A stretch of 64,000 nt of DNA. Source: an uncultured Gammaproteobacteria bacterium (GTDB lineage Bacteria; Patescibacteriota; Microgenomatia; Levybacterales; UBA12049). The stretch is from positions 13,210 through 77,209 of the forward strand of contig CAZDOJ010000001.1 of NCBI GenBank assembly GCA_964507055.1, in the 5' to 3' direction. The notes beneath the pieces are model-generated. The model was not told where the DNA came from and did no database searches. It saw only the letters and a program-made list of their open reading frames with translations. The translations under genes and the position numbers were made by a program. Below, piece by piece: positions 27,053 through 28,978 of this stretch. Within the stretch, counting starts at the first letter, position 1, and every line of letters starts with the position of its first letter.

Positions 27053-28978
27053 ATGACAGAGCAAAAACGAAATATTGGTCCAGCTGCCGCATTATTAAAG
27101 ACCAATCCTGAACTAATAGCACAATCACCAGAGATTGCAAGACAGCTTATAGCGGATAAAGGATTTGCAGGTGAGGCTATAGCACGTCTTGGAGGAAGGA
27201 GGATGCGTCTTCTTCTTGAAGGTAGTGCAGCCGTTCATAGAAGGGCAATGATGCCTATCTCAGGACTGAGTCGTGTCGATACAGTTGTTCCTCAATATAC
27301 CGGAACGCACGAGGAAAACACGCGTATTGATGAGGGTATAAAGACGGGACGGAAAGCCGTCATTAATGGCGGAAAAGATAGAGAGAAAGCTGAGGTTGGA
27401 GCGATTGATACGTTGCGTCTTCCTGAGTTTAAAGTCCCCGCACAAATAGCAGATACTCCCATTATTATTATTGGTGGCGGTGCAGCAGGTATTATCAGTG
27501 GGCGAAGTCTTCATGAAATGGGATTCACAAATGTGAAAATCTTTGAAAAAGGTAAACCAAACGGTATTTGGAATGCAGATAATGCTGACATTACTGATGG
27601 GTCACGAAATAATCCCTCAAAGATTGTATTTCATCATCGTCACCGAACGAGCTCCTCTATCCCTCCCGTTCCAGGTTCAGGGAGAGAAATTACGAGTTTT
27701 CTTGATGACATGACCAAGGGGCCTTTATTGTCCCAAGAATTGAATATACGCACTGCAGAAGTAACACATATCCAACCTGGAGATCTGCATCATATTGTTC
27801 ATTATCAAACGCCAGAAGGTGAAGCTCGTGCTGCAAGTGCTCCAATTGTGATTAATGCTACTGGAGTGGGAGAGCCTCTCCCTGCAAACCTACCCGGGAC
27901 AATGGAAACTTCAACAAAAGATGCTGGAGTTCGTTGGCAAGAAAAGATTACCCCTCAAATGGCTGAAGAGTATCGAAATAAGTCTATGGTATTAATTGGT
28001 TTGGGAAATAGCACTGCCGAAATGCTCATGCAAATTCAAGCTTATAACGCCCAAGGTTATAATATTGGCTACAAAATACTTACGCATTATCCGCAGGAAG
28101 CTGTGGTCGATCCTACTTCAACCTATAATTTGGAAGGTAGGCACTTTAAAGTTTTTCGTGACTCAAGAAATCTTGGTAGATACGACGGAGATTTGCAGGA
28201 GCCGAGAGACGCATACGTGCAAGCAGTTCAAGGAGGTAAGGTTATGGCTGATGTAACTCGATGGGATAGAATCGGTGATAACGTAATGGTCGAGATGCGG
28301 GACGGATCTTCACAAATAATTCCATGTGATCGCCTCTACACATTGATAGGTTATGGTCAGCCAGTCGAAGTTCTTGAAAAAATGGGTATGACTGTTACAG
28401 ATGCGGATAAAAGGACTGTCGCTGTGGATTATGATGGAGAAGTGCAAAGAGTGCCTGGAGTAGCAGGCCGTGATCGAGTATTTCCTGGTTATTTTGCAAG
28501 TGGATCCGTATTAAAATCATCAACAATGCCAAATGCATCGGTTATTCCTGGAATTTTTTTCCGTACGCCTGACTTACTCCTCGCTGTTACCACCAGAGCA
28601 ATGGAATATCAGATTGCTATTGAAAAATATAAAAAAACAGAGATAGCGGCGAAATTATATGGTCAACAGCCTAAGCCTGAAAATCGAGCAGGTGCACATC
28701 GAGCAACTGATTCAGAAACTATGTTGGACGGCGTTGTTGCTCAATGGATTACTAGTGAACAGTCTATTCAGGAATCTTTACACGATTCTGAGCCTGAACC
28801 AGTGGTCCCAGAAGAAGAGATTTCAGAGCAATCGAAAGAAGAGATCGTTTTTACGAGTGGCATACAAATTAGTGATGGGAAACTCGTATTTGGGCCTCTT
28901 CCAGGATTGGATGATAGAGTAAGTTGGGATATTGAAGCCGGTCCCGAAGATCAAGATCCGCCAAAAAAAACTCTCTAG
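27053..28978 (+). CDS. tail-family protein T2: FAD/NAD(P)-binding monooxygenase-like flavoprotein
   Basis: IIIIGGGAAGIISG...IFEKG (GxGxxG fold) and a second motif MVLIGLGNSTAEM. C-terminus VSWDIEAGPEDQDPPKKTL. TGcTATAAT lies 9 nt before the ATG. Confidence 0.8.
   Translation: MTEQKRNIGPAAALLKTNPELIAQSPEIARQLIADKGFAGEAIARLGGRRMRLLLEGSAAVHRRAMMPISGLSRVDTVVPQYTGTHEENTRIDEGIKTGRKAVINGGKDREKAEVGAIDTLRLPEFKVPAQIADTPIIIIGGGAAGIISGRSLHEMGFTNVKIFEKGKPNGIWNADNADITDGSRNNPSKIVFHHRHRTSSSIPPVPGSGREITSFLDDMTKGPLLSQELNIRTAEVTHIQPGDLHHIVHYQTPEGEARAASAPIVINATGVGEPLPANLPGTMETSTKDAGVRWQEKITPQMAEEYRNKSMVLIGLGNSTAEMLMQIQAYNAQGYNIGYKILTHYPQEAVVDPTSTYNLEGRHFKVFRDSRNLGRYDGDLQEPRDAYVQAVQGGKVMADVTRWDRIGDNVMVEMRDGSSQIIPCDRLYTLIGYGQPVEVLEKMGMTVTDADKRTVAVDYDGEVQRVPGVAGRDRVFPGYFASGSVLKSSTMPNASVIPGIFFRTPDLLLAVTTRAMEYQIAIEKYKKTEIAAKLYGQQPKPENRAGAHRATDSETMLDGVVAQWITSEQSIQESLHDSEPEPVVPEEEISEQSKEEIVFTSGIQISDGKLVFGPLPGLDDRVSWDIEAGPEDQDPPKKTL

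Follow-up and report, generated by a model that had tools for sequence, protein, structure and literature searches.

A two-Rossmann flavoprotein with a probable, divergent copy of the C-terminal tail of a 34-protein array clustered at a VirD4-like coupling ATPase in a Patescibacteria genome

In type IV secretion, coupling proteins read C-terminal signals in their substrates, such as the Glu-rich E-block of Legionella and Coxiella (DotL/DotM), the XVIPCD of Xanthomonas (VirD4) and the Arg-rich tail of Agrobacterium. In type VII secretion, the FtsK/SpoIIIE-like ATPase EccC/EssC binds the C-terminal tail of EsxB, and the diverse enzymes loaded into encapsulins and microcompartments carry short conserved terminal tags and flexible linkers. 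Here we describe a 64,000-nucleotide stretch of a Patescibacteria genome (contig CAZDOJ010000001.1; hereafter the window, to whose numbering all positions refer unless a locus is named), in which the gene at 27053..28978 encodes a flavoprotein that ends in a C-terminal tail. This tail is shared by 34 proteins encoded over about 70 kb, 20 on the plus strand of the window, one on its minus strand and 13 beyond it, and a gene for a VirD4/TraG-like type IV coupling ATPase lies inside the array.

Patescibacteria encode thousands of VirD4 homologs, mostly far from virB4, and a type IV system has been reported as essential for their growth on the host; neither a substrate nor a signal of these systems is named in this literature (PMC12102498; PMC12857230). 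In the locus described here, the coupling ATPase gene is the main clue to the purpose of the tail. We favour, at a probability of roughly 45%, the reading in which this ATPase, or an adaptor, recognises the tail as a signal for export and the flavoenzyme is one cargo. Export is favoured because the tail sits at the extreme C-terminus, is predicted to be disordered and is modular over unrelated cargo that lacks Sec signals, and also because the ATPase gene is embedded in the array and the other cargo appears effector-like. In this genome, the flavoenzyme has gained an M-T-E-Q-K-R lead, a disordered acidic linker of ~75 amino acids (aa) and a divergent copy of the tail. By the favoured mechanism, the exposed tail would be recognised either by the coupling ATPase directly or through an adaptor attached to the ATPase, and the substrates would then be handed to a type IV-like export route. 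Along this route the flavoenzyme would leave the cell as an effector, probably to enter a host cell, together with sigma- and helix-turn-helix (HTH)-like proteins and RRSP/ChaN-like putative hydrolases. The array and its putative machine comprise the following features.

24938..57275, plus strand: window part of the array, 20 consecutive tail genes; the true start of the first is likely the ATG at 24992
57280..58797, minus strand: 505-aa tail protein with the variant end VDFAGEDEPDQDLPKTL, in which Phe replaces Trp; 43.7 bits to the tail profile
58799..62551, minus strand: VirD4/TraG-like type IV coupling ATPase, 1,250 aa, inside the array and flanked by tail genes

Aligned, the tails span 25–40 aa with the consensus P.L...[ST]L..[LI][DN]..[IV]DW.G.DDPD.GP.R[ST]L-COOH. 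The tail is invariably at the extreme C-terminus and is carried by mutually unrelated proteins (no other detectable similarity); paralog groups within the array are T09–T13 with the N-terminal part of T18, T16/T17 and T04/T05/T07. At the DNA level, tails are 60–79% identical and the terminal four-codon strings differ in 18 of 18 tails. Because synonymous codons differ throughout, gene conversion was ruled out as the source of the similarity, and the tail is a module under selection as a peptide. A tail profile searched against 1.84 billion representative proteins gave 20 matches at E ≤ 0.001, of which 19 lie at an extreme C-terminus and all come from this genome, and one is a false positive, an internal repeat in an unrelated protein. 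A metagenome DNA-pattern scan for IDWxGxDDPD returned 20 matches, none at a C-terminus, and a profile of the T09–T13 paralogs matched nothing outside this genome. In structure models, the tails and linkers come out as disordered. Signal peptides and clear membrane segments are missing from all tail proteins; the product of 33755..35056 has one marginal hydrophobic window (aa 39–58, 1.63 against a threshold of 1.6).

The N-termini of the array proteins also share a pattern. Glu stands at position 3 in 20/34 tail proteins as against 2/24 housekeeping proteins (Fisher p = 9e-5). Array proteins open with M-x-E-[RQK] and then basic residues (for example those starting at window positions 27053, 43320, 44557, 50811 and 53577), and most of the remainder have ER or EN among their first seven residues. 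This motif may be a second part of the signal, or a translation-start preference.

The 13 tail genes beyond the window lie on contigs of the same genome, including locus L027 (1-17125), and beyond the outermost tail genes stand housekeeping genes for a HIT-family protein, S21, YbeY and DnaX. Within the array, a 456-nt gap between two genes holds a small unlisted open reading frame (ORF) of 110 aa (33347..33679, plus strand), which a 150-aa cut-off would miss; it has its own TATAAT box, begins MVESRRR and ends IFDGSNDGQSGPRRSL, a tail with Phe for Trp. The last plus-strand gene of the array (56079-57275) ends VQWDGSDSPRGVDGPKMR, without the [ST]L end. Judged by the position of the TATAAT-like boxes, the program-listed starts of several array genes lie too far upstream, and translation more likely begins at 24992, 35116, 38847, 39976 and 46443. 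In all, the array takes up its ~70 kb in a genome of ~1.3 Mb.

The coupling ATPase matches the Pfam families T4SS-DNA_transf (PF02534, 101.8 bits), TraG-D_C (PF12696, 39 bits) and TrwB_AAD_bind (PF10412, 35 bits). Its best NCBIfam match is the monoderm VirD4-like CD1115 family, at 72 bits and below the equivalog cut-off. Walker A (GPTGQGKS) and Walker B (LGALDE) are intact, and the protein carries an acidic N-terminal extension of ~640 aa that has no Pfam match and is partly low-complexity, rich in T, E, D and Q. The gene for the 505-aa tail protein lies 3' of the ATPase gene on the same strand, separated by one base, and this co-operonic protein might be an adaptor rather than a cargo. A search of 5.8 billion proteins with the full ATPase retrieved only the protein itself at E ≤ 1e-10, a result in which the acidic low-complexity N-terminus probably dominated the word filter. 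With the ATPase domain, a metagenome scan gave no relative, and a search of solved structures gave no sequence match. A role in anti-phage defence was considered and discarded, as PADLOC matched none of the flavoprotein, T01, T03 and the coupling ATPase.

Several observations weigh against export. The coupling ATPase has no membrane anchor (maximum 19-residue hydropathy 1.34 against a threshold of 1.6), and no VirB4, VirB6 or VirB8 gene is present in the window or ~20 kb beyond. Relatives of the ATPase or the tail, with which co-occurrence could be compared, were found in no other genome. Known type IV signals are mostly charge patterns of loose definition, and the tail is far more conserved in sequence. 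Finally, the tail of the flavoprotein is at noise level against the profile of the others and so may be a weak or decaying signal.

The soluble ATPase and the missing channel genes would also suit a non-secretory docking tag, by which the 34 proteins are gathered on a cytoplasmic hub, scaffold or compartment, either encapsulin- or microcompartment-like or with a soluble VirD4-like hexamer as the platform, so that the flavoenzyme works inside its producer. A short, well-conserved C-terminal tag on unrelated cargo is indeed what cargo-loading peptides look like. We nevertheless consider docking unlikely. The locus contains no recognisable gene for a shell, an encapsulin or a scaffold, and a search of the window and ~20 kb beyond for a relaxase, an integrase, a shell protein or a protease recognised none. 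Moreover, sigma-like DNA-binding cargo and cargo resembling toxin effectors suit delivery better than sequestration, and the sole recognisable machine gene of the locus encodes a secretion coupling protein.

The flavoprotein gene is made up of the parts listed below.

27035..27043, plus strand: promoter-like box of the extended −10 type, TGcTATAAT, with 9 nt between its end and the flavoprotein ATG
27053..28978, plus strand: tailed flavoprotein ORF, complete, with an ATG start and 641 aa plus stop
27053..27457, plus strand: N-terminal helical domain, aa 1–135, family-specific, with modelled helices at H11–98 and invariant K36 and Y82
27458..28672, plus strand: two-Rossmann-domain flavoprotein core, aa 136–540
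27461..27553, plus strand: FAD-binding β-α-β unit, with GGGAAG at aa 141–146, IFEKG at aa 163–167 (its acidic residue closes strand 2) and then GxW (G171, W173)
27983..28024, plus strand: second dinucleotide-binding motif VLIGLGNSTAEM, aa 311–324, probably for NAD(P)H
28673..28891, plus strand: acidic low-confidence linker, aa 541–613, present in no homolog
28892..28975, plus strand: C-terminal tail, a divergent copy GPLPGLDDRVSWDIEAGPEDQDPPKKTL placed by the tail alignment

The identical protein occurs on 8 contigs, one of 1.32 Mb, in the search of 5.8 billion proteins. No Shine-Dalgarno sequence precedes its ATG, and the −10 box, a consensus match only, suggests a leaderless or nearly leaderless transcript. 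TGnTATAAT-like boxes ending 5–10 nt before the ATG, again with no Shine-Dalgarno sequence, are found for most genes of the window (for example 27035-27043, 42103-42111, 16921-16929 and 22813-22821). This suggests that leaderless transcripts are widespread in the window, and as an array-specific trait they were rejected, since the housekeeping genes are arranged likewise.

The initial annotation had proposed two dinucleotide-binding fingerprints in this protein, and both were located, are conserved in the family and lie in confidently modelled β-α-β units. They are the only two G.G..[GAST] sites of the protein. Motif 1, IIIIGGGAAGIISG...IFEKG at aa 137–167, falls in the Rossmann unit E137-140/H144-155/E161-165, and motif 2, MVLIGLGNSTAEM at aa 312–324, in the unit E311-315/H319-332/E339-343, each with a predicted local distance difference test (pLDDT) score >90 in an AlphaFold model whose predicted template modelling (pTM) score is 0.82. 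The second motif reads GLGNST (aa 316–321), with a family-conserved Thr at the last position of GxGxx[GA]. Profile searches agree with this fold, as Pfam Pyr_redox_3 (40 bits, cut-off 30, aa 138–333) and Pyr_redox_2 (32.6 bits, cut-off 26.1, aa 137–470) both exceed their cut-offs. Neither outcome that would have refuted the initial flavoprotein assignment, a missing profile match or motifs outside a Rossmann fold, was thus obtained. The predicted fold matches YpdA/Bdr, small flavin-containing monooxygenases (FMOs), thioredoxin reductases and N-hydroxylating monooxygenases, and the best match of the FAD region in a profile search of solved structures is the S. pombe FMO 2gv8 (E = 6.4e-8).

An FMO-like identity, as first annotated, is upheld at the level of the fold and goes no further. 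The FMO-identifying motif FxGxxxHxxx[YF] (FxGxxxHxxxW in BVMOs) occurs in 0/54 family members (the set used for all motif counts), and Pfam Lys_Orn_oxgnase stays below threshold (12.5 bits, cut-off 21.3), as do the NCBIfam matches to YpdA and ArsO. The YpdA-type active-site cysteine is missing from the FAD motif GGGAAG, and TIGR04018 scores 21.4 bits against a cut-off of 339.9. CxxC is not in the flavoprotein and occurs in only 2/54 family members. G171 and W173 align with GGVWN of the S. pombe FMO, and TLIGYG (L431, G433, Y434) only resembles ATGY. Since the protein lacks the FMO motif as well as the YpdA cysteine and the CxxC pair, we rejected a canonical FMO, YpdA or thioredoxin reductase identity and assign the protein to an uncharacterised family of two-Rossmann flavoproteins. 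The search of 5.8 billion proteins gave 54 relatives at 34–46% identity, all uncharacterised, one of which is labelled 'monooxygenase [Parcubacteria group bacterium]'. The flavoprotein belongs to the two-dinucleotide-binding-domain superfamily, in a rare, uncharacterised family found mostly in Patescibacteria and DPANN archaea.

Conservation was assessed in an alignment of 41 family members. Invariant positions are G141, G143, G171, W173, R294-W295-Q296, N319 (in GLGNSTAE), L431, G433 and Y434, the block D459, D461, G462 and E463, and K36 and Y82 of the helical domain; G146, G316, L317, G318, S320 and T321 are nearly invariant. No cysteine is conserved across the alignment, including C425, the sole Cys of the flavoprotein. 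Of the 105 columns with at least 80% conservation among the other members, the window protein retains 99 (94%; the family averages 91%), and its catalytic core therefore looks functional. We infer from fold and motifs that the product is probably a soluble, active oxidoreductase that depends on FAD and NAD(P)H. Its fold, together with the NAD(P)H motif, suggests that electrons pass from NAD(P)H to an acceptor that is either a small molecule or bound to a protein.

Past the family-conserved core, the protein extends for ~100 aa (aa ~541–641), and the acidic linker followed by a tail that had been described there was confirmed, with 15 D/E against 4 K/R at aa 545–613. The linker accounts for about 75 aa and has a pLDDT <50 at aa 544–552 and 576–607, that is, over most of its length. 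The C-terminus reads VSWDIEAGPEDQDPPKKTL. The attribution of this end to the tail family stands on its terminal anchors and falters on its profile score, where it is the weakest copy. In a leave-one-out search, the flavoprotein tail scored 4.6 bits (E = 4.2 among 2,218 ORFs, aligned to the last 27 residues), whereas the other tails of the window reached 40–57 bits and those beyond it 10–49 bits. Ser replaces the conserved Asp before the Trp, the Gly after the Trp is missing, and PP stands in place of GP.

This lowest score of all tails, the three changes, and a catalytic core fully conserved as in untailed homologs could together mean that the tail is a degenerate, non-functional remnant, and that the enzyme serves the bacterium's own metabolism and stands in the array by accident. 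We regard this as quite unlikely. The extension is still an open frame and keeps the linker-plus-tail architecture of its neighbours. All anchors derived from the other tails are retained (hydrophobic-x-W, an acidic stretch and [RKQHN][RKQMST][ST]L-COOH, here in the form [KR][KR][ST]L-COOH), and the anchor ending is found in 0/1,969 control ORFs. The upstream PL..LD element is present as well, the end PPKKTL resembles SPKKTL and DPKKTL of two array members outside the window, and a PKKTL ending recurs on three other array members. In addition, the first ~9 residues, MTEQKRNIG, carry the N-terminal M-x-E-[RQ] signature of the array, the MTEQKR lead is missing from the homologs, and the usual partner genes of those homologs are not in the window. 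We therefore take the flavoprotein tail as the most divergent of the array, yet probably a real one.

The tail could instead serve degradation or processing, as a C-terminal degron or a site for a protease, and so keep the levels of the array proteins under common control. Such a role would account for a disordered, exposed peptide at the C-terminus whose last three residues are fixed, and AAA+ and tail-specific proteases do read C-terminal tags of such size, but it is very unlikely, as no protease gene was found in the locus, 25–40 conserved aa with an invariant Trp and an acidic block exceed the usual need of a degron, and the embedded coupling ATPase would be left unexplained.

How the flavoenzyme came to carry a tail can be approached through its relatives. 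The other 53 homologs lack the tail and end at or soon after the last core helix, RAxEY; a few have different extensions, unrelated to the tail. We compared the window locus with 18 related loci from reference genomes, which belong to Saccharibacteria, Levyibacteriota, Paceibacterota, Parcubacteria and two DPANN archaea, and also include two copies in one Ktedonobacteria genome and two metagenome-assembled genomes (MAGs) labelled Gammaproteobacteria/Pseudomonadales. The closest homolog among these loci (46%) is in a Levyibacteriota MAG. The tail motif is on no ORF of at least 60 aa at the 18 loci. Tail and linker thus appear to be an add-on to a normally untailed enzyme, seen in this small genome only. 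At 5 or 6 of the 18 loci (L011 11627-15274, L014 11655-15227, L016 11594-15688, L013 5205-9565 and L020 11212-14531), a conserved gene set adjoins the untailed flavoprotein gene.

Homolog partner: ~550-aa protein with a GHPHVDR motif and no assigned function
Homolog partner: protein of ~260 aa in which the JAMM motif HxHx7SxxD occurs; its Prok-JAB match (E = 0.009) is sub-threshold
Homolog partner: ThiF-family E1, 63–69 bits
Homolog partner: ~100-aa ThiS-like protein ending VRGN; ThiS E = 0.018, sub-threshold
Homolog partner, sometimes present: DUF6008 membrane protein

The ThiS-like, E1 and JAMM genes together look like a ubiquitin-like or sulfur-carrier module, and this neighbourhood hints, as a lead only, at sulfur-carrier or ubiquitin-like chemistry for the flavoenzyme homologs. 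A tblastn search of the window for the partner genes (ThiF and others) gave nothing significant. As candidates for the ~550-aa partner, the array neighbours T01 and T03 were rejected, with hhalign probabilities of 0.1% and 2.9%. The enzyme is therefore separated from its usual partners, at least locally.

The remaining cargo of the array looks effector-like. The paralog family T09–T13/T18 is modelled with a fold of the ChaN/erythromycin-esterase/RRSP/HopBA1 kind, in which one Glu and two His are invariant, and the ChaN/EreC fold is also that of the type III effector HopBA1 and the MARTX effector RRSP. As this family is enzyme-like too (ChaN/EreA/RRSP-like), the flavoprotein is not, as had been supposed, the one tail protein with a recognisable enzymatic fold. 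The plus-strand tail proteins at 44557-46401, 48738-50768 and 50811-53528 show sigma-70 region 4 (59 bits), a weak region 2 and several tandem HTH domains, and by these matches appear to be DNA-binding, sigma-like cargo. The suggestion that the flavoprotein is the best handle on the array holds for enzymology; for the function of the tail, it is less safe than proteins with a consensus tail, such as those ending at 50768 or 53528.

Taking these elements together, we put forward a broader and more speculative proposal, which we hold possible but tentative. The 34-gene array would be the effector repertoire of one 'orphan' VirD4-like ATPase of the Patescibacteria, and its tail the first recognisable type IV export signal there. 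Sigma/HTH-like regulators, RRSP/ChaN-like hydrolases and the flavoenzyme would be injected into the host, the flavoenzyme having been recruited from a ubiquitin-like/E1/JAMM-associated pathway by the addition of a linker and a tail.

The remainder of the window provides context for the array. A Patescibacteria-like origin is also suggested by the 1.32-Mb contig, by the taxa in which the flavoprotein homologs occur, by the monoderm-type VirD4 match and by surroundings that look reduced and are rich in nucleotide-salvage genes. A nucleotide-metabolism cluster at 4950-9312 (plus strand) contains a thymidylate synthase and two genes each of the dCTP deaminase-like and thymidylate kinase-like kinds, and is followed by SHMT at 10206-11525. 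Surface-protein-like genes with VWA and SdrD_B domains lie on the minus strand at 582-4812 and 11594-13407, with a Hint-domain protein at 12556-13407. RNA families and tRNAs were not found in the window. Purine excess strongly tracks the coding strand: plus-strand genes show a GC skew between +0.1 and +0.19 with a positive AT skew, and over the minus-strand ATPase gene the AT skew falls to −0.21 to −0.25.

Taken alone, the flavoprotein adds a new member to a known superfamily. The locus as a whole sets such an ATPase beside 34 proteins, all with one sharply defined C-terminal peptide in common, and thereby offers a concrete, testable candidate for both signal and cargo. Among this putative cargo, the flavoprotein is the easiest to assay, by flavin content and NAD(P)H oxidation, and its untailed homologs show exactly what was added in making a tail protein from a resident enzyme. 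Should the export reading prove wrong, the locus would still yield a well-defined tag for protein targeting that is new, as well as a family of uncharacterised flavoenzymes.

Compared with known enzymes, the flavoprotein is 16% identical to YpdA/Bdr (PDB 7a76, 7apr), with an NCBIfam YpdA score of 21 bits against a cut-off of 340. Unlike YpdA/Bdr, it has no cysteine in its FAD motif GGGAAG, and it carries an extra N-terminal helical domain of 135 aa, a linker and a tail. Its likeness to the small type II FMOs (S. maltophilia SMFMO 4a9w, S. aureus 3d1c) and to class B FMO and N-hydroxylating enzymes (2gv8, SidA) is at the fold level only. The second motif resembles the GGGNSAxEE motif of thioredoxin reductases.

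As for the tail, the array differs from encapsulin and microcompartment systems in that no shell gene was found in ~90 kb and the tail is unlike known cargo-loading peptides. With type VII secretion it would share, by analogy, a short C-terminal peptide read by an ATPase of the FtsK/VirD4 superfamily in a monoderm. It differs in having no WXG100/LXG fold and no YxxxD/E, and the ATPase fits VirD4/TraG models, not EssC. The closest parallel is with the type IV signals. Like them, the tail is C-terminal, predicted to be disordered and modular, has an acidic block, sits on unrelated non-Sec cargo and is encoded alongside a VirD4-family ATPase. Unlike canonical coupling proteins, this ATPase is anchorless, and channel genes were not found nearby. 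The tail also differs from the type IV signals in being a sharply conserved peptide of 25–40 aa, with an invariant Trp and a C-terminus fixed as R-[ST]-L, and its putative cargo genes form a single 34-gene array. What is unusual is therefore the combination: a resident enzyme has become a member of a 34-protein tail family clustered at an anchorless VirD4-like ATPase, with a tail unlike the described type IV signals and so far seen in one genome.

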